Source: a virus. Taken from it: a DNA stretch of 64,000 nucleotides. The stretch lies in IMG/VR virus record IMGVR_UViG_3300045988_184134; one strand, written 5' to 3'. Both the position numbers and the translations under genes were made by a program. The notes under the pieces were generated by a model that searched no databases, was not told where the DNA came from, and saw nothing but the letters and a program-made list of their open reading frames with translations. Positions 3,338 to 51,708 of the stretch are shown piece after piece. Numbering within the stretch: the stretch's first letter is position 1; the number at the start of each line of letters is the position of its first letter.

Positions 3338-3364
3338 GGTAAATACACTCCTTTGTTTTGACGC

Positions 3365-3494
3365 AAAAAGAGCGGGCCTCCCGCGTGGGAAGTCCGCTCT
3401 TCAAGCGAAATTGTGAATACGAAGGGCAAGTCGCCTTTTCGATTATGTTATCTATCGTACACTTTTATCTTACGCAATTCGCATATTTTGACAA
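3365..3494 (-). promoter_or_regulatory. module copy 1 (TTGTCA-N16-TAAGAT promoter, leader, terminator) upstream of 3005..3337
   Basis: Same P1, P2 and conserved CGTATTCACAATTTCGCTT box as copy 4; terminator AGAGCGGAC…GCCCGCTCT plus U5 at 3365..3400. Confidence 0.55.
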
Positions 3495-4844: not shown

Positions 4845-4983
4845 TAAAAAAGAGCGGGCCTACCCCGGAATGGGATAAGTCCGCTCTTAAAACAGATTGT
4901 GAACGATAGAAAATCGTAACATCTTTATGTGTTTGGTATCTATCGCACAATCAATATTGTAGTCAATTCGAAAGGAATGGCAA
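4845..4983 (-). promoter_or_regulatory. module copy 2 (TTGCCA-N16-TACAAT promoter, leader, terminator) upstream of 3667..4824
   Basis: Divergent leader that keeps P1 (GCGATAGA…TCTATCG) and CGTTCACAATCT; terminator AGAGCGGAC…GCCCGCTCT plus U6. Confidence 0.5.
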
Positions 4984-8698: not shown

Positions 8699-8899
8699 CT
8701 ACTCAACCTGAAGCACTGCCTGCATTGAGGTGTGCTGTTTCCGCTTTGCACGTGAAACGGCATGCTGCCTGACCGCCTGGCGGATGGCTGCGTTTGTGTG
8801 TTGGATGCTGGCGGTTTCCTCACGCGAAAAGTTTTTGTCCGTATTTCCTTGAAGATTAGACTCAGTTACAGCCTTTGCAAACTTAATAGATGTCGTCAT
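8699..8899 (-). CDS. small basic protein (66 aa)
   Basis: Internal ATG at 8899 preceded by GGAGG-CAGCT; trimmed from ORF-track 8699..8935. Confidence 0.3.
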   Translation of the reverse strand: MTTSIKFAKAVTESNLQGNTDKNFSREETASIQHTNAAIRQAVRQHAVSRAKRKQHTSMQAVLQVE

Positions 8900-9683
8900 A
8901 GCTGCCTCCGATTCCGGCCCAAAGAGCTTCATCACTCAAGTCGTTGCGAGGGCACTTGATAATGCCCGCTTCTCTTAAAATTTGTCTTGCTTCCTTTGGC
9001 GTTAAGCCGTATTGCTTGGCGAGATTCGATAGAGACTGATTTGGGATAGCTCTGGCTTGTGTAATCAATCGCCTTTTCTTTTCTGTCCAATCGATTGCTA
9101 AGCTCTTGTTTTTTGGAGCTGAGAGAGCGGTTCTTTCAAGGTCTTTTTCGAGGTCTTTTTGGTATTTTTTTGCGGCCGCCTGAATGCCGCTGACCGTCAT
9201 TCCCCATTTATCAGCAATCTTTTTATAAGACATGCCACTGATGTAGTCTTCATATATTTGTTTGTTTCTGGCGTGCTTTTCCTGAACATCTTTCTGGCGA
9301 TAGAGGCGCGTCTTCGCCAAACCTTCACGCTCTTTTTGATACTTTTTCACGATTGACCGAACGCAGCTACTGGTAACGCCCCATTTCTCCGCTATTTTGA
9401 TGCAAGACGCACCACTTATAAACTCTTCATAAATTTGCTTGTTTCTGGTATGTTTTGCCTGTGCATTTTTCTGCCAGTCAAGGCGTGTCTTCGTTAAACC
9501 ATATTTGGGGTCAGAACGTAGAATTTCGACAATTCTATAGCAAGAAAGGCTATATTTGTCCGCCAACTCCAAGACACATACACCATCCATATAATCTCTG
9601 TAAATGGCGTCATTGCGTTCTTTCAAAGATTCATAGACGCCGTTATTCTTTGCCTTCATCATAGTATCGCTGCTTCTCATCAC
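8883..9683 (-). CDS. transcription regulator with four tandem HTH repeats (sigma-70 region-4 / HTH_23-like)
   Basis: Repeated units YRDYMDGVCVLELADKYSLS / YEEFISGASCIKIAEKWGVTSS / YEDYISGMSYKKIADKWGMTVS / SLSNLAKQYGLTPKEARQIL. Confidence 0.55.
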   Translation of the reverse strand: MMRSSDTMMKAKNNGVYESLKERNDAIYRDYMDGVCVLELADKYSLSCYRIVEILRSDPKYGLTKTRLDWQKNAQAKHTRNKQIYEEFISGASCIKIAEKWGVTSSCVRSIVKKYQKEREGLAKTRLYRQKDVQEKHARNKQIYEDYISGMSYKKIADKWGMTVSGIQAAAKKYQKDLEKDLERTALSAPKNKSLAIDWTEKKRRLITQARAIPNQSLSNLAKQYGLTPKEARQILREAGIIKCPRNDLSDEALWAGIGGSYDDIY

Positions 9684-12634: not shown

Positions 12635-12914
12635 GCGCTTTTTATCGTATTTTGTTTTGAGTTTTGCGAGCACAAAAACAACGTCCACCCGTGATTTACG
12701 GATGGACGTTCAATCTTACGCAGCTACATGTGCTGCTACGATGCTTTCGGACGACATGTAGTCGATACCGTCCTCGTTTCAATCTTACGCAGTCACACGG
12801 GCTGCTACGGCAAAATTACATAACAAAGAATTTTGCATATATTCAGCATTGTATATTCTGCCACTATTGGTTCTACGTTATTTTTGTTTGCTATCACCGC
12901 ATCTCTTTGCGGTT

Positions 12915-17173: not shown

Positions 17174-17499
17174 AATCTGTTTCAAGTGAATCACCACCAT
17201 TTTTGTGGATGCAATGTGCTTTTTTCCTTCTTTATTTATAATTTTACCTGTAAAAACAGAAAAACACAACGATAGTAGCTTGTTTTTAATTTTCTGTACA
17301 CATTTTGAAAGAAAGTCTTTGCCATCGAATAGAAAAGAAAAGACCCGCCTGTTAGCAGCAGGCAGGCCGTTCTCGCAGTGAGCGTTTTAGGTCCGCTCAA
17401 GACCCTATTCGTCTCTACCGAAGCAACACTATCAGCGCCGTTCAGTATCTATTAGTATACGGTGGTCGCATATCGTGTCAACTGGATATCGCGGCAATG

Positions 17500-17555: not shown

Positions 17556-17876
17556 TTAGCCTTCGATATCGAAAGTGTAGCCCTTCACGGTCATAGTGAC
17601 CAGGCCGCTGCAAGACTTGCACTTTACGCCGTCCAGGCTGACATCGAGAGTCAGGCTGGAATCTTCGTTGTCCAGCCAGCTGGGCCGCATGTAGGCAGCG
17701 AGGTCGTGCAGCGCACCGATGACGTAAGCAACCAGGTCCTCATCATCCAGAGTCTGAGCAATCACGTCGTTTTCCTTGTCAGCGGGAAAGCCGATGGAAG
17801 CGGTGATGCTGTCAAGGGTGTTGTCGCCCTTGGAACGGAAAGCGGTGGCGCTGAACTCAATCAGGTTGGTACTCAT
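17556..17876 (-). CDS. hypothetical protein (106 aa), paralogue of 18065..18385
   Basis: Shares FSATAFRS…WLDNEDSSLTLD… with the neighbouring cassette; has its own promoter and terminator. Confidence 0.5.
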   Translation of the reverse strand: MSTNLIEFSATAFRSKGDNTLDSITASIGFPADKENDVIAQTLDDEDLVAYVIGALHDLAAYMRPSWLDNEDSSLTLDVSLDGVKCKSCSGLVTMTVKGYTFDIEG

Positions 17877-18064: not shown

Positions 18065-18385
18065 TTAGTCTTCGAAATTGAAGGTGAAGCCACTTTCTTT
18101 CATAGCGACAAGGCCGCCGCGCGTCTGACATTTGTTTCTATCGAGAAAGGTTTCAAGCGTCAGGCTGGTGTCCTCATTGTCCAGCCATTTGGGGCGCAGG
18201 TCGCTGATAAGGTTGTACAGTGCTGCGACAGCATGGACAATCAGTTTCTCTTCGCCCAGCATGTTTCCAATCACTTCGTCGTCGTTCTCCACAGGGACGC
18301 TGATGGAAGCCGAGAGACTTTCGAGGTTGTTGTTGTCATCGTTGCGGAATGCGGTAGCTTCGAATTTGAGAGTACAAGTGTTCAT
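18065..18385 (-). CDS. hypothetical protein (106 aa), paralogue of 17556..17876
   Basis: AAAGGAGAA RBS before the internal Met MNTCTLKFEATAF; similar terminator to the sister cassette. Confidence 0.5.
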   Translation of the reverse strand: MNTCTLKFEATAFRNDDNNNLESLSASISVPVENDDEVIGNMLGEEKLIVHAVAALYNLISDLRPKWLDNEDTSLTLETFLDRNKCQTRGGLVAMKESGFTFNFED

Positions 18386-18435
18386 TTTTGATGTTCTCCT
18401 TTGTATGTTATTTGGTTTTCCTTGCACTTTAAATT

Positions 18436-19521: not shown

Positions 19522-20967
19522 TCAACCGCCAACCAAAAAGGCGCTGTCCAGCCTGGCAATGCTCTCCATCTCTTCTCGCAACTCCCTGTTTGCCTCCGCA
19601 TCCCCTACCATATCTCTCAGCACCACAAACAAAGCTCTCACCACAATGCAAGAGCCATGATAACGCCCAACGCGCTGGTGCTTTTCAGAGTCGCAACTGT
19701 CATGCAGTATCGGTGCTTGCCTAAATGCAATAGCTGCGTTAAGCGCCATTGCAATGGGCGCTCCGATGGTAAACTCGCCATCTGAGACCAATGCAAGCTT
19801 TGCAAGCCAGATATAGGAGCGGAAAATAAAGAGTATCTCCTCAAGGGATAGAAGGCTCCAGTCGGGGATGGAGTCGTTTCCTTGGATGGCGACAATGGCT
19901 TTCTTGAAGCCATCCTTCGCCTGCTGATACTTCCTTTCGACCGCATCCAGCCATGCAATTTGAAACATAGCCTTGTAGTAGGTACTATCCAGATGTAGAG
20001 CTTTCTGGAAGCATTGCAAGGCCCTCTCGCTATCCGCGTACATCTGCTTTTCAGACAGGCCGTATTTCAGGAATATCTCAGCTGTAAAAGGCATCGTCTC
20101 TTTGGAGGCATGCTCTATAGCATCACGCAGGTACGGTCGCGCATCAAGAGCGAACTGTGGTTGCCCTTCGCACAGTGCGGCGGCCAGGTGGTACATGGAT
20201 ATGAAGTCTGGCTCGACGCGGTGGATTTTGTTCAGTTCCGAAAGTAGTTTCTCTACCGGCTCAAGGACCGAGAGTAGTCTTATCCTCAACGGAGAGTAAG
20301 TCTCCAACGCGGCCGTAAGCTCTCTTAGATGTCTCTGCGCGTTCACATAAGCGTACACGGAATAGACGCTCTGAGGCCCTATTCGGCATTGCTTTTCCAG
20401 CTCAATGAAAGAATCTGCCATCTCGTTGAGGTAGCCGTCATCTGGCAACTTGTAATCACTTCTTGGGTTAAGAGCTTTTAGTTCGCTCATTTTCAGAGCC
20501 TGAAACGTACTCTTGATTTGCAAGTGCGCGAACATGTCAAACCGCCAGAAGGTCTCATTGATGTGCTGGAGACTCGCTACTGCCATCGCATCTTCTCGCC
20601 AAACGTGACGAATGATGTCATTAAGCGCTTCCTTCTCAAACCGCATCACAGAGGAACGGCCTTGTATAGCATCAGCACCATTGATAATCAGTTTCTGTTC
20701 CTTGATGCTGAAAACGCACCACAATTCATTCTCAGCCGGTTCTGAATCACCGGGATAGCAGTCAGTGAGAAACAGATACGCTGTCTGTTTATTCTCAGGA
20801 TGCGCCAATATCTTATGTTGCTTTGACATGTCTTCGGCCGACATCCTGGTTGTTCTGACCAGGCAGCCAACGAAGGTAAAGAATGTTCTCAAGACTTCTT
20901 TTTCTGCTCCGGCTTGCGGTTCGTAGCAAATCTTGATAGCCATAATTGGCTTGATTGCATTGCTCAT
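19522..20967 (-). CDS. TPR-like repeat protein (481 aa)
   Basis: Helical repeat segments such as YYKAMFQIAWLDAVERKYQQAKDGFKKAI. Confidence 0.5.
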   Translation of the reverse strand: MSNAIKPIMAIKICYEPQAGAEKEVLRTFFTFVGCLVRTTRMSAEDMSKQHKILAHPENKQTAYLFLTDCYPGDSEPAENELWCVFSIKEQKLIINGADAIQGRSSVMRFEKEALNDIIRHVWREDAMAVASLQHINETFWRFDMFAHLQIKSTFQALKMSELKALNPRSDYKLPDDGYLNEMADSFIELEKQCRIGPQSVYSVYAYVNAQRHLRELTAALETYSPLRIRLLSVLEPVEKLLSELNKIHRVEPDFISMYHLAAALCEGQPQFALDARPYLRDAIEHASKETMPFTAEIFLKYGLSEKQMYADSERALQCFQKALHLDSTYYKAMFQIAWLDAVERKYQQAKDGFKKAIVAIQGNDSIPDWSLLSLEEILFIFRSYIWLAKLALVSDGEFTIGAPIAMALNAAIAFRQAPILHDSCDSEKHQRVGRYHGSCIVVRALFVVLRDMVGDAEANRELREEMESIARLDSAFLVGG

Positions 20968-21029
20968 GATTGCTTTTTATAACAAGAAACGCACGCGTGC
21001 GTTCAAAATCACATGCGTGCGTTTTAAGA

Positions 21030-21647
21030 TTATTTCGTTTCTTTCTTCGGATAGACACCGCTCGTTGTAGCCGTAAACAGCTTTTGGAAGATTGCTACAG
21101 CTACCAGGCAGAACCTCTCTGATTTTGTTCTTCCTTCTACTTGCAGGCAGCCGCTTTCCTGAATTTGTAGCAGCGCCTTATAGATGGCTCCATAGATGGT
21201 CTTTCGGAGGTCTGCATCTTCTTTGAGTACAACCACGATGTCTTTCGATGCCCAGGTGCAGACGCACATGAGTTCTGAAAACTTTTCGTCTTCTCCTTCA
21301 AAGGCCAGCTTCCCGCCGGGTGCGAAAGCTGCAAGTGCCAGTTTGTAAAGCTCCTCGTCATCTTTTGGCGTTTCGAGTTTGTCAGACTCTTTTGTGGCAT
21401 CCCATACTTTAAGGATGCCGTCAGCATATTTTGCCGACATGAAAGCAAGTCTGGTTCGCGTAAAATCGTTTGCCTTTACACGCTGCTCAGTTTCGGGATT
21501 GTAACAGGTCGTACTATCTACAATGTACTGCTGCTTCATCGTCGTCTCGATAGCTCGAACTGCAGGCATCAGACTTTTTGTATAGCTTTCAAGGGCTTGA
21601 AAGCCTTTATCCCCTTCGCTATTGCGATTCTTGTAATTGCACTTCAT
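21030..21647 (-). CDS. hypothetical protein (205 aa)
   Basis: Intact ORF in operon spacing. Confidence 0.45.
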   Translation of the reverse strand: MKCNYKNRNSEGDKGFQALESYTKSLMPAVRAIETTMKQQYIVDSTTCYNPETEQRVKANDFTRTRLAFMSAKYADGILKVWDATKESDKLETPKDDEELYKLALAAFAPGGKLAFEGEDEKFSELMCVCTWASKDIVVVLKEDADLRKTIYGAIYKALLQIQESGCLQVEGRTKSERFCLVAVAIFQKLFTATTSGVYPKKETK

Positions 21648-21658
21648 AGATGACTCCG

Positions 21659-22270
21659 TTACGCAATAGAATTAACCATATCCAGCTCCATACAGAAAAG
21701 TACGAAGGCCAGGTTGGTGATTTTATCGGCATCTGTATCGAGATGCCTGCCGAGTTCCTTGACCGCGCCGCCGTCCTTGAGGCTCTTGGCCGCCTGGTAG
21801 ATGAGCATGTAGGTGTTGACGTAGATAGCCTGCTGTTTCACGCGGTCCTTGGTAATGTGCTCCGGCATGCAATCCTCTGACAGCGACTTAATGAGCGGAT
21901 ACCAGCAGGAAAGGTACAAAGCACCATCCTCATCGTTCATCGCCTGCTGAATCTTGACCTGATACTTCGGGTAGTTGCCATTCACGACCTCAATGAACTC
22001 GGTATCTTTGAACTCATCGCGGTGGCAGTGAAGCCACAGGATAGCGTTGGCAAGGTCCATGCAGATAAGCGCCAGCTTTTCGGCTTTGGAATCATCCAGC
22101 TGAACCGTATCGAAGCTGTCAGCATCGATGTCATACTGCTTGTAAATGTTCACCAGCTTGTAGCTGTTCTCCCCTGCGCGTACCTTCTTCTTGATGAAGT
22201 CGGTAAAGTCGTGCGCCAAGGCCTCATAGGCTTTCTGCTGCTCTTCGGCAATCGTATTCTGTTCGCTCAT
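21659..22270 (-). CDS. hypothetical protein (203 aa), paralogue of 23498..24109
   Basis: Start trimmed to the Met with AAAGGAGAA-CTCAAC-ATG. Shares YKLVNIY and EDCMP…KSLK.GG…DADKI.NLAF with the paralogue. Confidence 0.5.
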   Translation of the reverse strand: MSEQNTIAEEQQKAYEALAHDFTDFIKKKVRAGENSYKLVNIYKQYDIDADSFDTVQLDDSKAEKLALICMDLANAILWLHCHRDEFKDTEFIEVVNGNYPKYQVKIQQAMNDEDGALYLSCWYPLIKSLSEDCMPEHITKDRVKQQAIYVNTYMLIYQAAKSLKDGGAVKELGRHLDTDADKITNLAFVLFCMELDMVNSIA

Positions 22271-22284
22271 GTTGAGTTCTCCTT

Positions 22285-22728
22285 TTATCTTAATTTGGTC
22301 CTGATTTCTTCGAGCATCATGCCCAGTTTGTTCTGACCGTGAACGCCCTTGCATCTGGGACACTGGCAGTCGCCCCAATAGTTATCGTGCCAGCCTGTCG
22401 TGTCCTCAATAATGTGCCGGTCGCCTGTAGCGAGCAGTCGCTGTTTGAACTCTTCGTTCTGGTTGAACTTGGCATACAGCACCCGGCGCATCGCTTCGTC
22501 TCGAACTTTGTCCCAATCTGGAGAAAGTTGGACCCGGCGGCCGAGTCGCTTAGCCTCGTTCGGCATGAGACAGGCAAACTGGCGTCTTTCCTCCGGCGGG
22601 ACCTTTTGTGCCTGGAACGCTGCCTCCGCGTTGAGGTAGTAGATTCCATCTAGCACAAAGGAGCAAGGATAATAATTGCTCAGAAACCCGTAGGTCGGGT
22701 CGTCTTTCTTAAACCGCAGCAGATTCAA
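22285..22728 (-). CDS. NADAR-domain protein (YbiA-like N-glycosidase / ADP-ribose processing)
   Basis: YGFLSNYYPCSFVLDGIYYLNAEAAFQAQK…EAKRLGRRV…DWDKVRDEAMRRVLYAKFNQNEEFKQRLLATGDRHIIEDTT matches the NADAR signature. TTG start with GGAGGG RBS, overlapping the upstream stop. Confidence 0.65.
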   Translation of the reverse strand: MNLLRFKKDDPTYGFLSNYYPCSFVLDGIYYLNAEAAFQAQKVPPEERRQFACLMPNEAKRLGRRVQLSPDWDKVRDEAMRRVLYAKFNQNEEFKQRLLATGDRHIIEDTTGWHDNYWGDCQCPRCKGVHGQNKLGMMLEEIRTKLR

Positions 22729-23371
22729 TGTGCATTCCCTCCATAACCCCGGCGGGCGTATCTTTGAGAACCTTGTAGCGCATCGTCGTGGCACCAAGCA
22801 GACCGTTGAAGACGGTCACGGCGGTATGCACGAACAGAGGGTTCTGCAAGGTCATCTTGCCGTTTGTATCCCACTGGCCTTTGAGTTCAGCGGCCGCATC
22901 GTACACAACCATCATCATGGCTTCATACATGTCGGACATCAGCTGTCGGTCGTACTTCTTCAAAGCATAGTAGCTTGGTAGGTTGTAAACGCGGCCGAGG
23001 AGCGGCTCGTCATACAAGGGCGAACCTTTCGCAACCATCGTATTGTAGACTTTGGGCCAGGCAGCTTCTTTCGGCTTGCCGGTGGTTGCCTGCATCTCGA
23101 TGTTCTTGAAACCAGCCGTCATGTTGTACAGCACCATGAGCCGCTCGGCAAGCAAGACGGAAGATTCAGCCAGGTGCTTTGCTTCCTCATTGGTCATCGC
23201 AACCTGCATGGCCGTGCTGTCCGAGTCGTTGCCATAATAGAAATACTGCTTGCGCCCGGCGGCAGCTTTCTGTACGAGCTTCTTTGCCAGCTGGCTTTCG
23301 ATGTAATTGTAGATGTCGTTTTCCAACTCACAGGTGATGTGCGTTGCGGTATAATGGATATTTTTGTTCAT
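22709..23371 (-). CDS. hypothetical protein (220 aa) co-transcribed with NADAR
   Basis: Stop overlaps the NADAR start; preceded by leader/terminator module copy 7. Confidence 0.5.
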   Translation of the reverse strand: MNKNIHYTATHITCELENDIYNYIESQLAKKLVQKAAAGRKQYFYYGNDSDSTAMQVAMTNEEAKHLAESSVLLAERLMVLYNMTAGFKNIEMQATTGKPKEAAWPKVYNTMVAKGSPLYDEPLLGRVYNLPSYYALKKYDRQLMSDMYEAMMMVVYDAAAELKGQWDTNGKMTLQNPLFVHTAVTVFNGLLGATTMRYKVLKDTPAGVMEGMHIESAAV

Positions 23372-23403
23372 TGGTTTACCTCTTTGTGTATAATAAAAAG
23401 AAA

Positions 23404-23490
23404 GAGCGGTCGAGCCGCTCTCCTCAAAACACTTATTTAGCTTACAATTTTCATTCTATGCAATTCGCACAGACACGCAAGGCAAAATGG
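23404..23490 (-). promoter_or_regulatory. module copy 7, short form (TTGCGT-N16-TAGAAT promoter, then terminator, then RBS of 22709..23371)
   Basis: TGTGCGAATTG spacer motif; hairpin GAGAGCGGCTCGACCGCTCTTTC plus U5. Confidence 0.5.
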
Positions 23491-23497
23491 CGACGCC

Positions 23498-24109
23498 TCA
23501 CGGATTCATCTCGTAGGCAATCAGTGCATCGTTGAAATACTTGAAAGCAAGATTTCCGATTTTATCTGCGTCTTTCGGCAGCTTGTCCACCATGCGTTTG
23601 ATGGAACCACCTGTCTTGAGAGACTTCATTGCCAGGTGAACATTCCAGTACATGTTGGTGTATACCAGCTGCCACTTCTTTTTGTCTCCAACATAGGCAT
23701 CCGGCATACAGTCTTCTGCCACAAGGCGAATAAGCATGTCCCACGCATCCAGGTAGAGAGGACTTGTATCATCGTTCAGCTTATGGATGATTTGCTTCAG
23801 ATAGGAAGTGTAGTCTTCCCCACTGATGTCAACAAGCTCGATGTCTGCGAACTTGTCGCGGAAGTAATACAGCCAAAGCGTTGCTTTCGCAAGGTCACAG
23901 CTGGCCGCAGCAAGCAGCTGAGCTTTCTGGTCCTGCAAAGTCACAATCTTGGCATCAGGGTCATCCAAGCCCTTCTCACCATAGAGATTGACCAGCTTGT
24001 ACTGGTCTTTGCCGACTCTATCCTCTCTGCGGATAAACTCTTTGAAGTCTTCCACGAAGGCAATGTATGCCTGGACCTGTGGGTCGTTTTTCGGGTTGAA
24101 CTCACTCAT
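23498..24109 (-). CDS. hypothetical protein (203 aa), paralogue of 21659..22270
   Basis: AAAGGAGAAGCGCAC-ATG; promoter with CGTTCGAATTG spacer at 24133..24165. Confidence 0.5.
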   Translation of the reverse strand: MSEFNPKNDPQVQAYIAFVEDFKEFIRREDRVGKDQYKLVNLYGEKGLDDPDAKIVTLQDQKAQLLAAASCDLAKATLWLYYFRDKFADIELVDISGEDYTSYLKQIIHKLNDDTSPLYLDAWDMLIRLVAEDCMPDAYVGDKKKWQLVYTNMYWNVHLAMKSLKTGGSIKRMVDKLPKDADKIGNLAFKYFNDALIAYEMNP

Positions 24110-24132: not shown

Positions 24133-24165
24133 CTACCTACAATGATACTCAATTCGAACGGATGA
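24133..24165 (-). promoter_or_regulatory. promoter TTGTTC-N17-TATCAT (spacer CGTTCGAATTG) for 23498..24109
   Basis: Sequence match. Confidence 0.4.
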
Positions 24166-24299
24166 ACAAGGAACCTTACGACATGTACATGGTTTCTTTA
24201 GAAATTGTTATCACGCTTTTAATAAACAGCGTCAAATCTCGCATTTTTGTATTCCATGTGTTATAAATGCAAGTAGAAAAGAAGGATGAGGCGTTTTTT

Positions 24300-34978: not shown

Positions 34979-35040
34979 ATTCATACTCCTTTCGCTCATC
35001 ACAACCAATGCCTGTCTTTTGTGCAGGCGCGAATACAAAC

Positions 35041-35073
35041 AAAAAAGCTGCGGAAGCAAAAGCAACCACAGCC
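35041..35073 (-). terminator. intrinsic terminator inside the flotillin leader, about 60 nt before its RBS
   Basis: Minus strand GGCTGTGGTTGCTTTTGCTTCCGCAGC plus UUUUUUG. Confidence 0.5.
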
Positions 35074-35220
35074 TTTTATATGAACCACCGGCCCAGGAAA
35101 AAGCCGATGGGGTGAATACAAGCGGAAAGCAAACATGTCAAAGTGAGAGGAAACCACGTCGTACACACCGGCAGGAAGAGGTTAAGACCCGCCGGAACCC
35201 AATTCCGCTTGTACAATTCT

Positions 35221-35260
35221 AATTCTACGCAATTCGCACAAATGCACAAGACATTATTTC
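35221..35260 (-). promoter_or_regulatory. promoter TTGTGC-N16-TAGAAT with TGTGCGAATTG spacer motif; heads the about 230-nt leader of the flotillin gene
   Basis: Sequence match; an upstream intrinsic terminator at 35271..35310 insulates it. Confidence 0.5.
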
Positions 35261-36153: not shown

Positions 36154-36380
36154 TGTATCACACCTTTGCTGATATTTTGCGAAAAAGTTATAATGTGACA
36201 ACCATTGCAATGGATATTGTTGCCAATTCGCACGTTTTGGCAACAAAAAGGCCCGACCGCTTTGGGTCGAGCTTAATGCTTCTTATTATATGTTGCTGGT
36301 TTTGCGTTTTCTTTTGGGACAGTGAAGTGTTTGCAAACAATTCATCACACACTGTCGAGATTTATTATGATATGGTATAA

Positions 36381-36389
36381 TGGGTATAG
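36381..36389 (+). promoter_or_regulatory. extended -10 (TGgTATAAT) for the GNAT-like gene
   Basis: Sequence match 23 nt upstream of the RBS. Confidence 0.35.
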
Positions 36390-36411
36390 AAAATGAGAGG
36401 AATGATGTGTA

Positions 36412-36825
36412 ATGCAAACCTCAATGCAGAGACTGTGTCTTTCAAACGAGCAGATTGAACGGCTTCAAGCTATCATAGAGTCAAAGCAAAACTGCAAGTG
36501 CCAGGCGGATGTATCGTTTGGCACTGTATGGATTACATCGGATGATGAACTCAATGAGCTGCGAGTCTCTTTTCTGGGTGATTTCGAGCTTGTCGTGTCC
36601 CGCGTTGGCTTTACTCATAAGCGTCGTGGTACGATGACTTCTGTTCTGGAAGAACTGAAGAAGATATGCACCGAGGTCGGCGTTCCCAGGATTGTGATAC
36701 AGTCTGTTCTGACACCTGAGATGCAGGCATTCTGCCAGGCGCATCATATTGAGCCTGACAAGAACACAACCATGCAGGTTGGTGATGTCTTGGTAGGCGA
36801 CTATTATCTTATGCTGGATACCTGA
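36412..36825 (+). CDS. GNAT-family acetyltransferase-like protein (plus strand)
   Basis: FTHKRRGTMTSVLEELKKICTEVG resembles GNAT motif A; extended -10 (TGgTATAAT) at 36381..36389. Confidence 0.45.
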   Translation: MQTSMQRLCLSNEQIERLQAIIESKQNCKCQADVSFGTVWITSDDELNELRVSFLGDFELVVSRVGFTHKRRGTMTSVLEELKKICTEVGVPRIVIQSVLTPEMQAFCQAHHIEPDKNTTMQVGDVLVGDYYLMLDT

Positions 36826-36831
36826 ACCTTT

Positions 36832-37221
36832 TCAGCATTCGAGAACTTCCGGGTCTCCATCGAAATTCTCTCCCCTGTCGAGGCGCTGCCCCACAGAGAA
36901 GTTGATGACAAGGGGGTCCTTGTCATATTCAGAATAGTCGAAGTCTTCCCTCTCACCGTCACTCAACGCTGGGTCATACTCAATTGTTGCGAGCCAAGCA
37001 TCGAACGGCATTTCATCATGGGTTGCGATGTATTTGGCGTACTGCCCAAACAGTTCGCAGCATCTGGGCCACGGCAGAGGATTGTCAAGATAAAACTCAA
37101 GCTGCCAGTCCTCATACGGAGTCAGGTCGTTCACGCCGTAACGCTGGAGCCCCTTGAGTGCTTCCTGGCCTTCCTTGCTGGTAAAGAGATAATCGTATCC
37201 GTTCATGTTCATTTCCGTCAT
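36832..37221 (-). CDS. hypothetical acidic protein (129 aa)
   Basis: Converges on the GNAT-like gene. Confidence 0.45.
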   Translation of the reverse strand: MTEMNMNGYDYLFTSKEGQEALKGLQRYGVNDLTPYEDWQLEFYLDNPLPWPRCCELFGQYAKYIATHDEMPFDAWLATIEYDPALSDGEREDFDYSEYDKDPLVINFSVGQRLDRGENFDGDPEVLEC

Positions 37222-37380
37222 CTTTTACAGGTCCTTTCTTTATTTGTGTTTCTTCCAAGTTCGTGGTGGTCGGCCGAGTCCCTGCCCCCTTTCTTTGTGG
37301 GGTCACTCTATAAAGAGATATTTTCTATAAAAATGTAAACCGCTATATACAAAAAGCCTCCAAAATTCTGGCGGCTGCTG

Positions 37381-37905
37381 TTATTTGTGATGGAGAGGTG
37401 CTGCTCCGAGTAATGCTGTCACATCAAACGACGATGCGTTATAGACTGTCAGCTGTTTCTCAAGCGCGTATTTCACAGTATAAGCTGTGCCGCCTGTCTG
37501 CTTCGTGCAGTAAGAAATGCAATAGTCTGAGCAATCGACCAGATGCCTGTCACGGGTCAAGTAAGCACTCTTGCTCGGCTCTTTACTGACATAGACGATT
37601 TTGTCCATCTTTTTGTCTAAGTTCTTAGCATGGAGCTGCTGTTCTGGAGTCCATCGGTCGCGGTAGCCTTCAAAAGGAAGCACCTCGATGATGCGCAGGC
37701 GGCCGTTTTCTTTCTTCAGCTCAATGAGCATCTCCGCTACGAGGGTATCGAATCCTAAAGCACCGCCTACTCCATAGTAGATAATTCCGCTCTGGATGAG
37801 TGGGATAAGCCGATGCCTTACTCTGGTTAGAATCTTTGTTTGCTCTCCCGGCGGGATGTTTCGATGCCCCGTAAAGCAGCATGTTTGCTTCTTAAATTTT
37901 CCCAT
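37381..37905 (-). CDS. SLOG-superfamily protein (DUF1273/YpsA-like)
   Basis: CCFTGHRN…GGALGFD pattern typical of YpsA/DprA-like SLOG Rossmann domains. Confidence 0.4.
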   Translation of the reverse strand: MGKFKKQTCCFTGHRNIPPGEQTKILTRVRHRLIPLIQSGIIYYGVGGALGFDTLVAEMLIELKKENGRLRIIEVLPFEGYRDRWTPEQQLHAKNLDKKMDKIVYVSKEPSKSAYLTRDRHLVDCSDYCISYCTKQTGGTAYTVKYALEKQLTVYNASSFDVTALLGAAPLHHK

Positions 37906-37975
37906 ACCGGCTCCTTTCTGTCAATTGGACAATTTATCATCTTTTGTCAATTCCGCTCACAAATAAAGTGACGAT

Positions 37976-38003
37976 ATTGACGAATTAGCGCAATTCCGTA
38001 TAA
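37976..38003 (+). promoter_or_regulatory. plus-strand promoter TTGACG-N16-TATAAT for the BlaI-like / XRE regulator pair
   Basis: Near-consensus hexamers; spacer contains CGAATTAGCGCAATTCCG. Confidence 0.5.
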
Positions 38004-38035
38004 TTGAAATCAGCATTACAGAATAACAATGAAAG

Positions 38036-38431
38036 TTGGTGTTTTCTATGGCAGCTTCCAGCCATGCGCCCCGTCCGTATCATCTGACTCCCGCAGAGGA
38101 AACCGTTATGAAAGCTTTCTGGAACAGCAAAAAGCCGCTGTGCCAGCAGGATATCCTTGACCATGTGAAAGAGAATGGTGACCTGTTCTGGAAAGAGCGT
38201 TCCATCTTCGCCATCATCAATTCTCTGATGAAGAAAGGCTGTATCAAGGAGGATGGGATGGTTCGCGCCGGTAAAACCTATGCCAGAACTTTTGCTCCCG
38301 CAATGAGCCGTGCAGAGTTCTATGCGGGCATGGTGACGAACGCGCTGACGAAGAAAGAGCTGGTCGAGTTCCGTCGCGCTATGCGTCAGTTAGCGAACGA
38401 AGATTCTGAATCTTCCGATGAGGAGGCTTGA
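38036..38431 (+). CDS. BlaI/MecI/CopY-family winged-helix transcriptional repressor
   Basis: LTPAEETVMKAFW…QQDILDHV…ERSIFAIINSLMKKGCIKEDGMVRAGKTYARTFAP matches the penicillinase-repressor family. Confidence 0.6.
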   Translation: MVFSMAASSHAPRPYHLTPAEETVMKAFWNSKKPLCQQDILDHVKENGDLFWKERSIFAIINSLMKKGCIKEDGMVRAGKTYARTFAPAMSRAEFYAGMVTNALTKKELVEFRRAMRQLANEDSESSDEEA

Positions 38432-38437
38432 CTTCAT

Positions 38438-38746
38438 TTGGAGGTGACTCTTATGCCGAATGCACGGATATTAGGTGCTTATATCAGGCAGAGGATGAAA
38501 GAGAAAAATCTTTCCGTAAGTGCTGTTGCCTCTATGCTTAGTTGTAGCGAGGTGGATGTGCAGAGGCTTTTATGTGGCCGGGCACTTGCTTCATACCCAC
38601 AGATGCAGCGCCTGGCGGAAGGCTTAGGTTTATCTGTGCCTGCACTGCTGCGGAATGCCTCCAGAATTGAGACAAACGCTTCCAGAGAAAAGATTCTTGA
38701 CATTATCTGGGACTACATGGATGTCCGAGATGCGGTACTATGTTGA
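38438..38746 (+). CDS. XRE-family HTH regulator
   Basis: LGAYIRQRMKEKNLSVSAVASMLSCSEVDVQRLLCG helix-turn-helix. Confidence 0.55.
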   Translation: MEVTLMPNARILGAYIRQRMKEKNLSVSAVASMLSCSEVDVQRLLCGRALASYPQMQRLAEGLGLSVPALLRNASRIETNASREKILDIIWDYMDVRDAVLC

Positions 38747-38768
38747 CTACACGCCACAGTGGTGGGCC

Positions 38769-39041
38769 TTAACAAGGGTCTGCTGCCGTGGCGTTTTTTC
38801 TTGCTTCCACGAACCATTTATCTACTTCATAATAGAGGTATGTTCTGGCCCTTCCAATCTGGCATGTATAGCGGACTCCCACTCCGCCAGTCTTGGAGTA
38901 TTTGCGCGGCATCACCTCTGAGATGTTGGTGATGTCGAAGCGTTGGCCCGTATCCCAGATAACGGTCTGTGGCATGAGCGTTCCGTCCGGCTGAAAGTCA
39001 GCGATGACCTCAACATATTTCTTGATTCTCTGTTCTGGCAT
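38769..39041 (-). CDS. small protein immediately downstream of the Y-family polymerase (YolD-like by position)
   Basis: In SPbeta-type elements the uvrX-like Y-polymerase is followed by yolD; positional inference only. Confidence 0.3.
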   Translation of the reverse strand: MPEQRIKKYVEVIADFQPDGTLMPQTVIWDTGQRFDITNISEVMPRKYSKTGGVGVRYTCQIGRARTYLYYEVDKWFVEARKNATAADPC

Positions 39042-39044
39042 GGA

Positions 39045-40313
39045 TTATATGCTCCCTTGTAAGTATCCGTGTGGGTGAATCGTATGGTCTGCCCTCGCGT
39101 CGCAATGCGAGAGGAGTCGGTCCTTATACATCACAGCTCGCTGTACAGAATAGTATCCAAATCGGTTTCTGACCCCATCAATGGCAGATTCTAAGCGTTC
39201 CATCTCTTCTTGCTTTTCGGCACTGAAGTCGAACGAGATTTGGCAAGGCTCCGTATCCGGCTGTAGGTCTATGGCCCGCACGCCAATGGAACGAAGATGC
39301 TCGCTCCAATGATAGTGCTTTTTATATAACGTGAACGCGGCGGTCGCTATCTCTTGCTCTTGCATTGTCGGCAGGGACAGTTTCATCTGGCGCTCGAAGC
39401 TGAATAGGTTGGAGTCCCTCAAACTCACCTCCACGCCTCGGCATCGGAAATGGTTCTCTCGGAGGCGTGCCGCGACACTCTCTGCGAGTAGGTAAAGCAC
39501 TATCCAAACATCCTGGTCGGTCTTTAAGTCCCGTGGTGTCGTCCAGCTATTTCCGATGCTCTTGATGGGAGCAAGCACCTCCCGCTGCTCGTACTTCGCC
39601 ACCGGGTCAGAGTCCAGGCCGTTGGCAAACCTCCAGAGCAAGAGTCCTACCTTGCCGAGCTTCTCCTGCAAGAACTGAGGTCTGGTCTTTGCCAAGTCTC
39701 CAATGGTATGTATAGCATAGCTATCTAACTTAGCAGCCGTTTTCTTTCCTACATATAGCAAATCCGAAGCAGGCAGCGGAAAGACTATCTTCTCGAAATT
39801 CTGTCTATTGATGACCGTAATGGCATCTGGCTTTTTGTAGTCCGAGCCGAGCTTTGCCATCGTTTTATTCCAACTGACTCCGACCGAGCAGGTAATGCCG
39901 AGTTCGTCCTTGACGGTGTCGGAGATTTTCTTTGCTATCTCCTCCCCTGTCCCAAAGAGAGACTGACTCGCGGTACAATCGAGCCAGGCTTCGTCCAAGC
40001 CAAACGGTTCGACCTGGTCGGTATAGCGCAGGAAGATTTCTCTGGTATAGCCGCTGAATCGGGTGTATAGGTCATAGTGAGCCGGAACAAAGGTGATGTC
40101 TCTGCAATGTTGCTGTGCCTCCCAAAGCGGCATACCAGTTTTCACGCCCATCCGCTTGGCCGGATACGAAGCTGTCAATACGATGCCGCTCCGCCGTTCT
40201 GGGTCACCGCATACTGCAATCGGCTTGTCCCGTAATTCAGGATGGTAGGCCATCTCACAGCTGGCATAGAAGCAGTTCATATCGCAATGAAGGACGGCTC
40301 GTTCTTTTGCCAT
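39045..40313 (-). CDS. Y-family DNA polymerase (DinB/UmuC/UvrX-like)
   Basis: MAKERAVLHCDMNCFYASCEMAYHPELRDKPIAVCGD… N-terminal signature. Start trimmed to MAK because the TGYGCGAATTG promoter motifs at 40326..40365 lie inside the longer ORF-track version. Confidence 0.85.
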   Translation of the reverse strand: MAKERAVLHCDMNCFYASCEMAYHPELRDKPIAVCGDPERRSGIVLTASYPAKRMGVKTGMPLWEAQQHCRDITFVPAHYDLYTRFSGYTREIFLRYTDQVEPFGLDEAWLDCTASQSLFGTGEEIAKKISDTVKDELGITCSVGVSWNKTMAKLGSDYKKPDAITVINRQNFEKIVFPLPASDLLYVGKKTAAKLDSYAIHTIGDLAKTRPQFLQEKLGKVGLLLWRFANGLDSDPVAKYEQREVLAPIKSIGNSWTTPRDLKTDQDVWIVLYLLAESVAARLRENHFRCRGVEVSLRDSNLFSFERQMKLSLPTMQEQEIATAAFTLYKKHYHWSEHLRSIGVRAIDLQPDTEPCQISFDFSAEKQEEMERLESAIDGVRNRFGYYSVQRAVMYKDRLLSHCDARADHTIHPHGYLQGSI

Positions 40314-40325
40314 AATATACAACCT

Positions 40326-40365
40326 CAATTCGTACAGATGGTTCCTAATTCGCATATAACAACCG
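40326..40365 (-). promoter_or_regulatory. two tandem TGYRCGAATTR motifs immediately upstream of the Y-family polymerase start
   Basis: TATGCGAATTAG and TGTACGAATTGAGG on the minus strand; -10 TATATT abuts the ATG. Confidence 0.35.
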
Positions 40366-40508
40366 ACTGTTGTTATTATAGCCTATCAAGTGGTGGGATG
40401 CAAGGGGTATGGAAGAATTTGCCGTTTGCAATCCCATTAGTTACTCTACAACTGTGGAAGACCTTGACAAAAGAAAGAGAGGAGCTTGTTTAGCTCCCCT
40501 CTTTTACT

Positions 40509-42218
40509 TTATTCTGTGATATTCAGTTTTTTGAGTTCCTCGTACACGCTCTGCTCTACAAGACTTAGCGATGTGACATCACGGATATAGCCTACTGGAA
40601 CGCCTTTTCGTCCGGCAAGGTCTTTGATTGGCGTATACTCTTTATGGCCCATGCTGTCAGTCTTGAAGAGTACGGCGGCCGCACCGTCCAATTGCCTATC
40701 GGCCGTCATTGCTTTATCTTTCTCGACGACAGCGGCTTCCGGGTATTTCTGAGCGAATTTGCCCATGATGTTTGGATGCCCACCAACGAAGACGATTTTC
40801 TTAGCCGAGAAGATTTTTGAAAGTTCCTCCTCATAGTTGATGTCTGTTTCCGCCGGGGCAGCCTCTACTCTTTCTTCGGTCGGTTGAGCTGGAAGCTGCT
40901 GACGCAGCCTGGCGTTCTCTTCCCGCAGGGCTTTGAGTTGTTCCTCAAGGTCTGTGATTTGCTTTTGCTGGGACTCGACCTTGGATTGGATGCCTGCATA
41001 GCGATTCCTGGCATCCTCGGCCGCACGCTCTGCCGCATCGGCGCGGACCTTGTATTCCTTCAGAGACTCTTTCTGCTGTTTCAGCAGCTCACCGTCCCGT
41101 TCCATCTGTCGCTTGCACTTCTTCAGTTCATTGTTTAGGCGGGTCCCCTGCGGATTGAAGAAGTAGTCCTGTAATCCTTCCAGCACAGTTTTCTTCGTTT
41201 GCTCGCAAAGCATCGTATAGTAAGTAGCATTAAAGAGTGCAGTACGGAATATTTTCACTTTCTCTTTTGCTATCTGTATGGTTTCGTCATCGTAAGCAGA
41301 TTCGTTTTCTGCGTCAATCGCTTCCCATACCTTCTCAAGCGGTGCATCTACTTTATCGATACTGGCGGCCGTATAAGCAGCAACTGCCATGTGCATCAGC
41401 ATTTCCTTGGACAGCACCTGCTTATCCATTCTTTGCTGGTTCATTACGCCACTGGCCGTGAGTGTCGCGATAAGAGGCATCTGAAGAGCGTTTTCTTCAT
41501 CGCGTTCTATACCTGTTTTCCGGCGCATCGTATTGGAGTCGTTAATCCAGGTGGCACCGAAGCTTTTAGCAGCAAATCGCGGCCGTACTATGGTTCGATA
41601 CAAATAGTCGTAGCGTTCCATGTAGCGAACCTTGGCAGTGGTATTGATATTACCCAACAGCATCATCGCCAAGAGTGCATTGGTGTAGATGTCATTGCTG
41701 CAAGAATCGAAATTCTTGTATCGCGGTGCATATACCGCAAAGAAGGCTCTGGATGGCGGATTCAGTTTATGTTCTGTAAAAGCGTCATACGCTATGGTTT
41801 GCTTGCTCTTGTCGTCATCAGGGGTTGACTCTATCTTACTGTATACTGCTTCGAGCGCCTTCTCGTTAATCGCAGGCAATTTTTCTTTCTTTGTGTTTTT
41901 CAGATAGGTTGATAGGAGGTCTTCGGTAAACTGCGGCTTATCATCTTCGTCGCTGCTTAGAATACATGCCAGGCATAGGACTGCATTGCGGCTCTGCACT
42001 GTATCTAAGCCTAATATGTACTGGAGCGTTTTCTCTCCGTGGCAGATTGCTTTGATATGCTTATCTACCTTATCCTGATGCTCACTGTAGTATTTGCCGG
42101 ACAACTCTATGCACGCTTTGCTTCGGCTCGCAAATAGCGCCATGCGTTCGGCGTACTTATCGTACAATGCGCCCACTGTCATGGTTTTTGGAATTTTGTT
42201 CTTTGCCACGTCATTCAC
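40509..42218 (-). CDS. coiled-coil protein with conserved C-terminal VFVGGHP domain (569 aa)
   Basis: Long Glu/Lys/Arg coiled coil at about aa 370..460. C-terminal KKIVFVGGHPNIMGKF… is paralogous to the C-terminus of 43808..44452. Confidence 0.5.
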   Translation of the reverse strand: MNDVAKNKIPKTMTVGALYDKYAERMALFASRSKACIELSGKYYSEHQDKVDKHIKAICHGEKTLQYILGLDTVQSRNAVLCLACILSSDEDDKPQFTEDLLSTYLKNTKKEKLPAINEKALEAVYSKIESTPDDDKSKQTIAYDAFTEHKLNPPSRAFFAVYAPRYKNFDSCSNDIYTNALLAMMLLGNINTTAKVRYMERYDYLYRTIVRPRFAAKSFGATWINDSNTMRRKTGIERDEENALQMPLIATLTASGVMNQQRMDKQVLSKEMLMHMAVAAYTAASIDKVDAPLEKVWEAIDAENESAYDDETIQIAKEKVKIFRTALFNATYYTMLCEQTKKTVLEGLQDYFFNPQGTRLNNELKKCKRQMERDGELLKQQKESLKEYKVRADAAERAAEDARNRYAGIQSKVESQQKQITDLEEQLKALREENARLRQQLPAQPTEERVEAAPAETDINYEEELSKIFSAKKIVFVGGHPNIMGKFAQKYPEAAVVEKDKAMTADRQLDGAAAVLFKTDSMGHKEYTPIKDLAGRKGVPVGYIRDVTSLSLVEQSVYEELKKLNITE

Positions 42219-42279
42219 TCCTTTTCTATCTGTATTATACCAAGAGCGGTATCAACAACCAATGTTGGCGGTAAGAATG

Positions 42280-42744: not shown

Positions 42745-42855
42745 GAAGATGCCTCTTTCTGAGTACGATGTGTCTCTGTATAGTTTATCGCCCTATGCAC
42801 AACTCGTTTTCATTTTCCGCATGACGATGTTTGTATTTATAGCACGTAGCGTGCT

Positions 42856-44452: not shown

Positions 44453-44478
44453 ATCGGTAAGGGCTGTTTCTACTGGGT

Positions 44479-49238: not shown

Positions 49239-49243
49239 GTTTG

Positions 49244-50505: not shown

Positions 50506-51708
50506 TTAAAAGAGACTCTTCTGTTCAGCGGTGTTTGCCGCTTCCATCGCTCGCGCCTCACTCTCTTTAGCAGCATCCAACTGTTTCTGCAACTGTTCAA
50601 TTTGCTTGACCAGTGCATCCTCATTGGAGTTCTTCGTGCCGCCAAATAGCTCATTGGAGATAGAGCCTTTCAGTTCATCGTTGTATGCTTCGCCGAGACT
50701 GCGAATTGCGATGTACATAGGCAGCATCGTGTTATAGAGATTGACGATAGCAGCCACAGCAAGACTTGATGTTTCATCCGCCAGGATTCGGCCATTGTCA
50801 TCAATTTTGATGTGCTCATCGTCCATCAAGGAGAAGAAATCGCCGCGCACCACTTTGCCATCTTCACCGACCTTGGTAAAGTATAAGCTCTTGGCAACAG
50901 CACGCTGAGCTTCGGTGAATTTTTGCTTCGTAATGGTACGGTCATAAGCCGGGCTATTTGCAACACCGGCATCCAACAGGGCCAGCGTGCTCAGCATTTC
51001 GGCGGAACAAGACACGCCGTAGTTAGAGAAAGAGAACCAGTCAAAATGACCAATATCTCCATCGTCATCTTCTAACATGAGGTCATTCGTTCCAGATACC
51101 AGAACTGCATTCGTCACGAGGTCAGAGAAGTTCTTCTGGTTTGTCATACCATATTGGACAAAGAATTTCTCTTGCTCAGACAAAGGCTTTTCTGCATCTG
51201 TCTTTCGGGTCATCTGAGATAATGTGTTGCAAAGACGCGAAAAGCCCATTCGGTTCTGTTCCAGATAGCTTTCAGGACTCGCAAGCAGGAAAATGGCAAA
51301 GACTGCCACATTCCCAATCTCGCTTCCATAAAGGCCAGACATACGCTTTGCCAATTTCAGCATGCCATCTTTTTCGTTTTTATAAATTTCACTGACAAGA
51401 GAAGCGACAGAGCCATATTCTTTGCCAAACAGCATTACCAACTTTGTGTATTTGGGTGCCTTATCCGCATACAGCAAATAATAAAGGACAGCTGCGATTT
51501 TTAGTCCCTCCGTGCGCTTGGCACAAGGCAGCACAGTAACGCCATAGAAATTCCCGTCTGCAATAAGTTCTTTTGCGCAGCGACGATAGCAAAGGTTGCT
51601 CTCGTATTCTTCGATGAACCGTTTGCGAGGACCGCCCGTGTGCGTCAGGTCAGCAGCGATAATGCTGCACCACATTGGGTCAAATGGGATAGATTCGTTA
51701 TATTTCAT
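50506..51708 (-). CDS. hypothetical protein (400 aa)
   Basis: Intact ORF with a C-terminal coiled coil. Confidence 0.45.
   Translation of the reverse strand: MKYNESIPFDPMWCSIIAADLTHTGGPRKRFIEEYESNLCYRRCAKELIADGNFYGVTVLPCAKRTEGLKIAAVLYYLLYADKAPKYTKLVMLFGKEYGSVASLVSEIYKNEKDGMLKLAKRMSGLYGSEIGNVAVFAIFLLASPESYLEQNRMGFSRLCNTLSQMTRKTDAEKPLSEQEKFFVQYGMTNQKNFSDLVTNAVLVSGTNDLMLEDDDGDIGHFDWFSFSNYGVSCSAEMLSTLALLDAGVANSPAYDRTITKQKFTEAQRAVAKSLYFTKVGEDGKVVRGDFFSLMDDEHIKIDDNGRILADETSSLAVAAIVNLYNTMLPMYIAIRSLGEAYNDELKGSISNELFGGTKNSNEDALVKQIEQLQKQLDAAKESEARAMEAANTAEQKSLF

Follow-up and report, generated by a model that had tools for sequence, protein, structure and literature searches.

The 64,000-nt window analysed here (IMG/VR virus record IMGVR_UViG_3300045988_184134) is part of a parent element of about 200 kb or larger. 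On its minus strand, a compact regulatory module separates an open reading frame (ORF) of 203 residues from a run of genes that begins with a 220-residue ORF and a NADAR gene. A first-pass annotation had placed this module at 23404-23490 and described it as the short form of a repeated cassette, in which TTGCGT-N16-TAGAAT is followed by a hairpin with five uridines and then by a Shine-Dalgarno sequence and ATG, controlling a candidate anti-defence operon. Every element named there could be located on the minus strand between the stop codon of the upstream ORF and the ATG (Table 1). The layout is confirmed, although the interval 23404-23490 omits the last bases of the stem, the U-run and the ribosome-binding site.

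The two promoter hexamers (23480-23453) lie 82 nt upstream of the ATG, and their 16-nt separation is within the 16-18 nt of sigma-70/sigma-A-type promoters. Transcription is predicted to start at about 23446-23445. The hairpin at 23423-23401 has nine pairs, five of them G-C and two G-U at the base, with a 7-bp core (AGAGCGG/CCGCTCT) and a folding energy of about -12.6 kcal/mol. It is called a minus-strand terminator-like site by a consensus scan, and the signature of an intrinsic terminator, a hairpin with a U-run, exists on this strand only, the plus-strand side being without a T-run. In the roughly 20 nt between U-run and ATG (23391-23372), no alternative promoter was seen by eye. A separate terminator for the 203-residue ORF upstream of the 23480 promoter was likewise not found, leaving the hairpin as the sole one available to that gene.

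A promoter family with a start-site box and a leader terminator

The significance of the module derives from the family of whole 34-nt promoters to which it belongs, from the enrichment of the start-site box and from conservation in orthologues, not from its bare hexamers or its hairpin energy. The hexamer pattern as such is at chance level in the window, with 7 matches at up to two mismatches against 5.8 expected. A weight matrix of the 34-nt promoter, in contrast, has 17 matches above 30 bits in the window, every one of them on the minus strand ahead of a gene; the next-best score is 10.6 bits, shuffled sequences give about 0.4 matches above 12 bits, and no match was found on the plus strand. 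The 23480-23453 copy, at 37.6 bits, is among the best.

The family consensus is nnnTTGcnnatnTGTGCGAAtTGcnTAcAAT, with TGCGAAyTG as the spacer motif. In the family logo, the spacer core TGCGAA carries about 2 bits per position, approximately as much as the TTG of the -35 hexamer and more than its 3' half. The logo is identical for promoters with and without a box downstream, and the spacer motif is equally frequent in promoters that lack box and terminator. It is a candidate site for a regulon-wide DNA-binding factor; to our knowledge it has no real match to the Spo0A box, the LexA (Cheo) box or CRP half-sites. The second shared element is the 15-nt start-site box TTGTANGNTANATAA, which has five matches in the window against 0.15 expected, all five adjoining a promoter. 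Positions 23447-23433 match the box consensus TTGTAnGnTAnATAA exactly, and all copies have the same rigid spacing between -10 hexamer and box. We considered whether the palindrome formed by -10 hexamer and box, TACAAT-N4-ATTGTA, could discriminate transcripts arriving from upstream, and rejected this since it would be broken in the many copies with TAGAAT, including the one at 23458-23453.

The promoters serve two classes of transcription unit. Plain units have 30-45 nt between the -10 hexamer and the ribosome-binding site and ATG, and 37 of 56 have a terminator just upstream of the promoter. In box units, the start-site box is followed by an intrinsic terminator before the ribosome-binding site. 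The promoter-plus-box pattern occurs in at least 120 stretches of IMG/VR contigs of 30-389 kb, mostly from human-gut samples, and the weight matrix identifies 306 promoters in these related loci, 129 of them non-redundant. Both box and terminator are present at 58 of the 129, box only at 14, terminator only at 11 and neither at 46 (odds ratio 17, Fisher p = 2.6e-12), several of the exceptions being failures of our crude detectors. A second terminator lies no more than 160 nt upstream in 33 of 65 box-plus-terminator units, which makes the leader terminator a part of the cassette itself and not just the end of the preceding gene or operon.

Within the window, box and terminator accompany 8 of the 17 promoters, and two further promoters have a leader terminator with a degenerate or variant box. 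The order of promoter-like element, leader terminator, ribosome-binding site and gene is thus a recurrent one, as the first-pass annotation had claimed. In every cassette the U-run is followed at about 20-50 nt (up to about 65 nt) by the ribosome-binding site and gene, with no promoter of the gene's own visible. Strong terminators are distributed unevenly in the window, 29 on the minus strand against 5 on the plus strand. None was found internally downstream of the cassettes, so that only the leader terminator has to be passed. One copy with a degenerate box (GTTAATGGATACCA), at 53936-54115 on the minus strand, combines a family promoter with a leader of about 112 nt and a terminator of the long-form type, and is also found in another locus (L063). 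The region 36250-51840 (about 15 kb) has several strong minus-strand terminators (for example 46443-46408 and 40503-40475) and no family promoter; the units there must therefore use a different promoter type.

Table 1. Positions of the module, related leaders and neighbouring genes in the 64-kb window
Feature	Coordinates	Strand	Remarks
Stop codon TGA of upstream ORF	23500-23498	minus	ends 203-residue ORF, 17 nt before -35 hexamer
-35 hexamer TTGCGT	23480-23475	minus	TTGc position invariant in family logo
Spacer motif TGTGCGAATTG	23471-23461	minus	inside 16-nt spacer; family-specific
-10 hexamer TAGAAT	23458-23453	minus	16 nt downstream of -35 hexamer
Start-site box TTGTAAGCTAAATAA	23447-23433	minus	after GAAAA, 5 nt past -10 hexamer
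Hairpin GGAGAGCGG/CTCGA/CCGCTCTTT	23423-23401	minus	begins 29 nt past -10 hexamer; 5-nt loop
U-run CTTTTTATT	23400-23392	minus	directly 3' of hairpin
Shine-Dalgarno AAAGAGG	23385-23379	minus	7 nt before ATG
Start codon ATG of 220-residue ORF	23371	minus	
203-residue ORF	23498..24109	minus	upstream gene; plain family promoter (34-mer 24172..24139), no leader terminator
220-residue ORF	22709..23371	minus	first gene of operon behind the hairpin
NADAR gene, 147 residues	22285..22728	minus	start overlaps end of 220-residue gene by 20 nt
203-residue paralogue of upstream ORF	21659..22270	minus	gap of 14 nt after NADAR gene
205-residue ORF	21030..21647	minus	gap of 11 nt
TPR-like ORF, 481 residues	19522..20967	minus	gap of 62 nt
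Full-size leaders	3362-3461, 4845-4950, 56583-56685, 61370-61472	minus	start at predicted transcription start
Reduced leader copy	51736-51803	minus	
Short-form contexts			220-residue/NADAR operon; helicase operon after 12637 promoter; unit after 449 promoter

Long and short forms of the leader

In most box units, box and terminator are separated by a structured RNA of about 50 nt. This RNA is a three-way junction in which P1, formed by UUGUACG of the 5' box and CGUACAA, encloses P2, a UAGAU/AUCUA hairpin, and P3, a variable G+C-rich hairpin. A conserved tail, AAUUCACAAU, lies 3' of the junction and is followed by a terminator of 12-14 bp. A covariance model built from 14 sequences with a hand-specified structure matches 106 copies in 47 sources, and in the window it finds five copies (3405-3462, 56627-56685, 61413-61472, 4891-4945 and 51761-51803). 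In the junction alignment, which was fitted to the model itself, the paired fraction of cells is 91%, against at most 63% when the partners are slid by 1-3 columns, and changes on both sides are seen at 11 of 17 pairs. P3 alone has about 26 double changes per pair, and G-U pairs occur in the covarying helices. The terminators of the long forms covary at 8 of 11 pairs. An alignment of long leaders by MAFFT, folded with RNAalifold, recovered only the terminator, the variable hairpins being misaligned.

In some copies the box pairs in another register, as one long imperfect hairpin; in the cassette after the 4986 promoter, the box pairing is CGAUAGA/UCUAUCG. These alternative registers suggest an independent reason for the fixed box sequence, to which the partner adapts. 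A further helix between tail and terminator (UUCGC/UCUGC to GCGGA/GCAGA; C-G 17, U-A 13, U-G 6, C-A 1) is suggestive in the long forms, although both subfamily structure and an alternative clamp (CGC/GCG, around the U-run) confound it. The whole window has no match to Rfam 15 at the gathering score, the interval 23300-23560 gives no more than chance-level matches (best E = 1.4), and a literature search on the motif strings returned no description of the cassette. The family appears to be undescribed.

Two other leaders of the window differ from the junction RNA. At about 35040-35252, a family promoter on the minus strand drives, ahead of the next gene, a structured RNA of about 175 nt. This RNA is closed by a stem, UUGUACAAGCGGAA/UUCCGCUUGUA, that is followed by AUUCAC and a terminator. 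Rfam contains no match to it, and a close relative occurs nearly unchanged in more than 20 IMG/VR contigs. At 17338-17484 (minus), a weak family-like promoter (10.6 bits) precedes a leader of about 110 nt and a strong terminator (17372-17338). This leader is conserved in a related locus (L055) and may be another non-coding RNA.

The copy at 23404-23490 lacks the junction. With filters off and a threshold of E <= 10, the covariance model (R1) finds nothing at 23372-23450 and thus no P1, P2 or P3, and the AAUUCACAAU tail is absent between box and hairpin. The description of this copy as a short form is borne out by the contrast with the five matching copies elsewhere in the window. Its hairpin, at -12.6 kcal/mol, is about 1.8 standard deviations weaker than the long-form terminators (-19.3 +/- 3.6 kcal/mol). 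The core AGAGCGG/CCGCTCT is identical to the lower terminator stems after the family promoters 3497 and 4986, whose upper stem is here replaced by the 5-nt loop. MAFFT did not align the terminator of the short form with those of the long forms, so the shared stem strings are a direct observation only. From these features, the copy looks like a deletion derivative, a reduced member of the family.

Orthologues of the module are available as five copies from other samples, three of them distinct from the copy in the window. The promoter is invariant among them except for one change in the -10 hexamer, and the U-run and Shine-Dalgarno sequence are invariant. Variation is found at two of five loop positions and in the spacers between stop codon and promoter and between Shine-Dalgarno sequence and ATG. 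The orthologues are too similar to reveal compensatory changes in the stem. For the helicase operon, which has another of the short forms, a distant relative retains a recognisable box with a hairpin stem of completely different sequence. This helicase unit has, just ahead of its terminator and promoter, two 32-nt direct repeats 69 nt apart (12709-12740 and 12778-12809) with 88% identity.

Proposed passage through the leader terminator

On balance we lean towards reading the 23404-23490 copy as a sigma-A promoter of the regulon type with a leaky attenuator in its leader, which would also serve as the terminator of the upstream gene. A sigma-A-type promoter would start the RNA at about 23446, with the box UUGUAAGCUAAAUAA as its first nucleotides. 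About 23 nt into the transcript, the 9-bp hairpin and U-run would act as an intrinsic terminator, at which polymerases coming from 23446 or from the 203-residue gene would mostly halt, releasing in the former case a leader RNA of about 50 nt. The five-gene operon would then be transcribed only by the fraction that reads through. Since no promoter is seen between U-run and ATG, the operon must depend on polymerases that pass the hairpin, and these have two sources, the module's own promoter and the plain promoter at 24172..24139, because no separate terminator stands upstream.

The only sensible reading of a strong terminator directly behind a strong promoter, as found in about half of the units, is that passage is conditional. 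In the long forms, passage most likely needs a dedicated antitermination step, by way of either a factor that would recognise the leader or an RNA that would act on the polymerase. The short form, without the RNA domain and with a weaker hairpin, is probably leaky and works largely as a constitutive attenuator, controlled at the promoter like the other units of the regulon. This agrees in outline with the first-pass annotation, whose interpretation we regard as partly supported, regulated control of the operon by the module being putative.

Several observations weigh against this reading. The start site, termination, the fraction of read-through and the existence of any factor are predictions from the sequence. 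The energy of the hairpin is ordinary for its composition (z = -1.05 to -1.3 against shuffles), and in one orthologue (L002) a G-to-A change breaks one pair of the otherwise invariant stem. Given that the 203-residue gene has no separate terminator, the hairpin can be explained simply as the terminator of that gene. Short forms are rare, with three gene contexts, or four if the reduced form before the 400-residue gene 50506..51708 is counted. No convincing antiterminator helix that could compete with the hairpin was found in the short form, and among the approximately 78 ORFs of the window a Pfam comparison revealed no antiterminator-type protein (Q, N, NusG/LoaP, KOW, ANTAR or BglG). With no competing helix found, the long form looks less like a classical riboswitch and more like a polymerase-acting RNA such as put, EAR and canT, or a factor-binding RNA of the nut/N type. 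We also considered attenuation by a leader peptide. A 19-codon frame that starts with TTG crosses the hairpin, and its terminal ATGA overlaps the start codon; this was rejected, as the frame has no Shine-Dalgarno sequence and is kept in the relatives trivially, in the absence of insertions and deletions.

Alternatively, the hairpin could be the ordinary gene-end terminator of the 203-residue ORF, with the next promoter brought upstream of it by compaction and the operon fed by passive leak, without any cassette logic. The gap of only 17 nt between stop codon and -35 hexamer, the lack of another terminator for this gene and a weak hairpin that tolerates the mismatch in L002 are all consistent with this, as is the norm of one terminator per intergenic region among the plain promoters, 37 of 56 of which have theirs upstream. 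We nevertheless consider it unlikely, because positions 23447-23433 hold a conserved copy of the start-site box, the mark of cassettes with a terminator. Across the family, the box predicts a leader terminator (p = 2.6e-12), and half of such cassettes have a separate terminator upstream as well. The order of promoter before terminator recurs in 8 of 17 copies in the window and in the two with a degenerate or variant box.

At the other extreme, and in our view rather improbable, is a gate that operates across the whole element. Early or establishment operons would lie behind terminators that can be passed only from a family promoter, or the leaders would be a multi-copy small-RNA decoy. In the first version, the box, with or without the junction RNA, could grant passage, the signal being read by a factor of the element or of the host; the short form could then show that the 15-nt box alone suffices, as a new signal of the qut/ops or nut kind. 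In the second, the roughly ten terminated leader RNAs of each element could constitute a small-RNA family that serves as a decoy against host defence.

If an antitermination factor were loaded near the promoter, as with lambda Q or with RfaH at ops, the box would have a different role, as a -10-like pause element in the non-template DNA. A polymerase paused there would be modified and become resistant to the terminator, and polymerases arriving unmodified from upstream would stop. This would explain why the promoter lies upstream of the terminator, and the layout matches that of lambda PR'-qut-tR', with a putative -10-like element at about +2 to +7. The rigid distance between box and -10 hexamer in all copies, together with the conservation of the box in short forms that lack its RNA pairing partner, keeps such a DNA-level model alive. 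Its chances seem small to us. Promoters that lack box and terminator have the spacer motif just as often, the covarying RNA structure of the long forms would be superfluous to such a mechanism, and neither a Q-like nor a NusG-like protein was seen among the approximately 78 ORFs scanned in the window, 64 kb of an element of about 200 kb or more. The -10-like hexamers in the first transcribed bases are TACGAT/TAGATA in the long forms and TAAGCT/TAAATA in the 23404-23490 copy, where TAAGCT is a poor match.

The cassettes might also be small-RNA genes at many paralogous loci, whose terminated RNA of about 50 nt (about 100 nt in the long forms) has a trans-acting role, either regulatory or as a host-factor decoy, with incidental read-through into the genes downstream. 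The order of strong promoter, short RNA and terminator would suit this, the conserved segments predicted to be single-stranded are the box and the long-form AAUUCACAAU tail, and one member of the family is the highly conserved RNA of about 175 nt. We hold this to be very doubtful, given that every cassette is followed by a ribosome-binding site and a gene without a visible promoter of its own, that the box has no complementary target in the window except its partners in cis, and that the short form retains almost no RNA-specific features. A single-stranded-DNA promoter or single-strand origin on the transferred strand (Frpo/ssi/sso type), for which the uniform gene direction and a content like the establishment region of a Gram-positive conjugative element could be cited, is largely refuted: no inverted promoter copy could form a -35/-10 duplex, the only local inverted repeat is the terminator stem, and the G-U pairs in the covarying helices favour RNA over DNA.

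Cargo, element and relation to known systems

The leaky-attenuator reading places five genes (19522..23371) under the module. They are probably one operon, with neither a strong terminator nor a family promoter detected downstream of the 220-residue and NADAR genes before 18463. The 147-residue product of the second gene belongs to the NADAR family (Pfam 9.6e-29; Phage_30_3 5e-08). T4-like phages neutralise DarTG1 defence with orphan NADAR enzymes (PMC11825919), a precedent that makes "candidate anti-defence" a reasonable label for this gene, and for this gene only. The 220-residue protein has no Pfam or PHROG family and only three homologue clusters in 5.8 billion proteins, and its single-sequence structure model was unusable (pLDDT 37), so that the first-pass label of the operon holds through its second gene. 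The upstream 203-residue ORF likewise has no Pfam or PHROG match. It belongs to one of two paralogous minus-strand ORF pairs. The members of the 203-residue pair (23498-24109 and 21659-22270) bracket the 220-residue and NADAR genes, and those of the 106/108-residue pair (17556-17876 and 18065-18391) each have a plain family promoter of their own. A possible second counter-defence gene is that of an MBL-fold protein (3667-4824, minus) behind a long-form cassette, which has a faint precomputed match to the anti-Pycsar Apyc1 family.

The window encodes UmuC, YqaJ, a UvrD-like helicase, a DUF3854/YodL-type primase-like protein, a sortase, a signal peptidase, SPFH and NADAR, and its relatives a 3195-residue Cna_B adhesin, TopoIII, LigA, RecD2, RecG, TnpB and McrBC. 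Among about 190 ORFs scanned, no phage structural or type IV secretion genes were found. The closest annotated neighbourhood is an integrase-flanked region of the Vescimonas plasmid pMM35_02 (YqaJ, RecD, YodL/DUF3854, AcrIIA9, PcfJ, LigA). The window had no nucleotide match in phage or plasmid collections and the 220-residue protein no plasmid match; contigs carrying the exact protein measure 177-244 kb, with others of 686 kb and 2.6 Mb. The family promoter also occurs on a 224-kb contig of a metagenome-assembled genome labelled Clostridiales bacterium HRGM_Genome_2451. Although the IMG/VR label is viral, the gene content looks more like that of a Gram-positive conjugative element or megaplasmid, and the window is reminiscent of the accessory or establishment region of a large mobile element from Gram-positive bacteria. 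In one related locus (L056, from about 14087 onward), a family promoter appears to drive a tRNA-like sequence (gctctgtagctcagatggcagagc...) and not a protein gene.

The only regulator-like protein seen in the window is ORF 8883..9683 (minus), with four tandem Mor/sigma-region-4-like helix-turn-helix repeats (DNA tandem repeat 9147-9500). It is encoded behind, and translationally coupled to, the 942-residue UvrD-like helicase. A second Mor-like ORF lies just past the low end of the window (locus L132). Both are candidate regulators of the TGCGAAyTG promoters, the link between ORF 8883..9683 and this motif being speculative. Further candidates for a factor that promotes read-through are the products of the plain units whose promoter 34-mers start at 58111, 28119, 24172, 18463, 17953 and 998.

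Mobile elements need fast and brief counter-defence expression on entry into a new cell. Here, one promoter type is reused before at least 17 transcription units, about half of which add a leader terminator, often behind the structured RNA of about 50 nt, which has no counterpart in Rfam. If the gate is conditional, it would be a compact and portable single switch for many kinds of unrelated cargo, such as NADAR, a helicase and the Apyc1-like MBL protein. Searching gut metagenome contigs with the promoter and box patterns yields more than 300 units, so that the patterns can mark candidate anti-defence cargo. The family is a more interesting object than its degenerate member at 23404-23490; as a minimal version, this short form is a natural test case for what is needed of promoter motif, box and terminator.

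By analogy, the closest concept is that of the EGeRS1 and EGeRS2 sequences of the pLS20 and p576 plasmids, a conserved sequence repeated before several establishment operons, in which EGeRS2 comprises a strong sigma-A promoter with an element-specific operator and EGeRS1 blocks read-through from upstream (PMC8708921). The likeness lies in one regulatory sequence placed before separate and variable establishment or anti-defence operons of a Gram-positive mobile element. There is no sequence relation, and the dual heptamer operator of EGeRS2, TTATCCCnnTTATCCC, has only two matches in the window, each with two mismatches and neither at a promoter. The motif lies here within the promoter spacer, and beyond it the cassettes have a start-site box, an intrinsic terminator and, optionally, about 50 nt of three-way-junction RNA. 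A looser parallel is provided by KorA and KorB of IncP plasmids, which control plasmid-wide repressor regulons.

Structured RNAs that let polymerase pass terminators in cis include the put RNA of HK022 and EAR of B. subtilis. Tn916 combines an insulating terminator, T1, with the cis-acting antiterminator RNA canT (PMC11658703). The long forms resemble these systems in having terminators in their own path and an RNA in the same transcript that needs no alternative pairing, by which analogy an antitermination activity of the long forms is putative. The known RNAs are found at one or two places in an element, from which they act processively across many terminators, whereas the window has about ten cassettes in 64 kb, each with its own terminator right after the RNA, and a short form without the RNA. 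The zipper-type attenuator cATT of pLS20, with ConAn1/conAn2 (PMC13401043, PMC8191782), is similar in that an intrinsic terminator in the 5' leader of an operon sets the level of transcription in a Gram-positive mobile element. It differs in being a single 456-nt leader with an explicit antiterminator formed by long-stem extension, in contrast to the many leaders without an evident competing helix described here.

The region PR'-qut-tR' of lambdoid phages also places a promoter directly before a terminator, and polymerase yields a short RNA unless Q modifies it near the promoter. The cassettes share with it the absence of a gene between promoter and terminator, a conserved element between the -35 and -10 hexamers and a putative -10-like hexamer just after the start. 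Such phages have one cassette each; in the window, the spacer motif is also found in terminator-less promoters and the long forms have RNA structure. In type III toxin-antitoxin systems (ToxIN), a promoter, a non-coding RNA, a terminator and a gene follow one another, and the terminator sets the ratio of RNA to mRNA. The cassettes have no tandem RNA repeats, and the genes behind them are diverse and unrelated to ToxN-type toxins. None of the systems compared shares the combination of spacer motif, start-site box, optional junction and terminator, which is repeated about ten times in these 64 kb.

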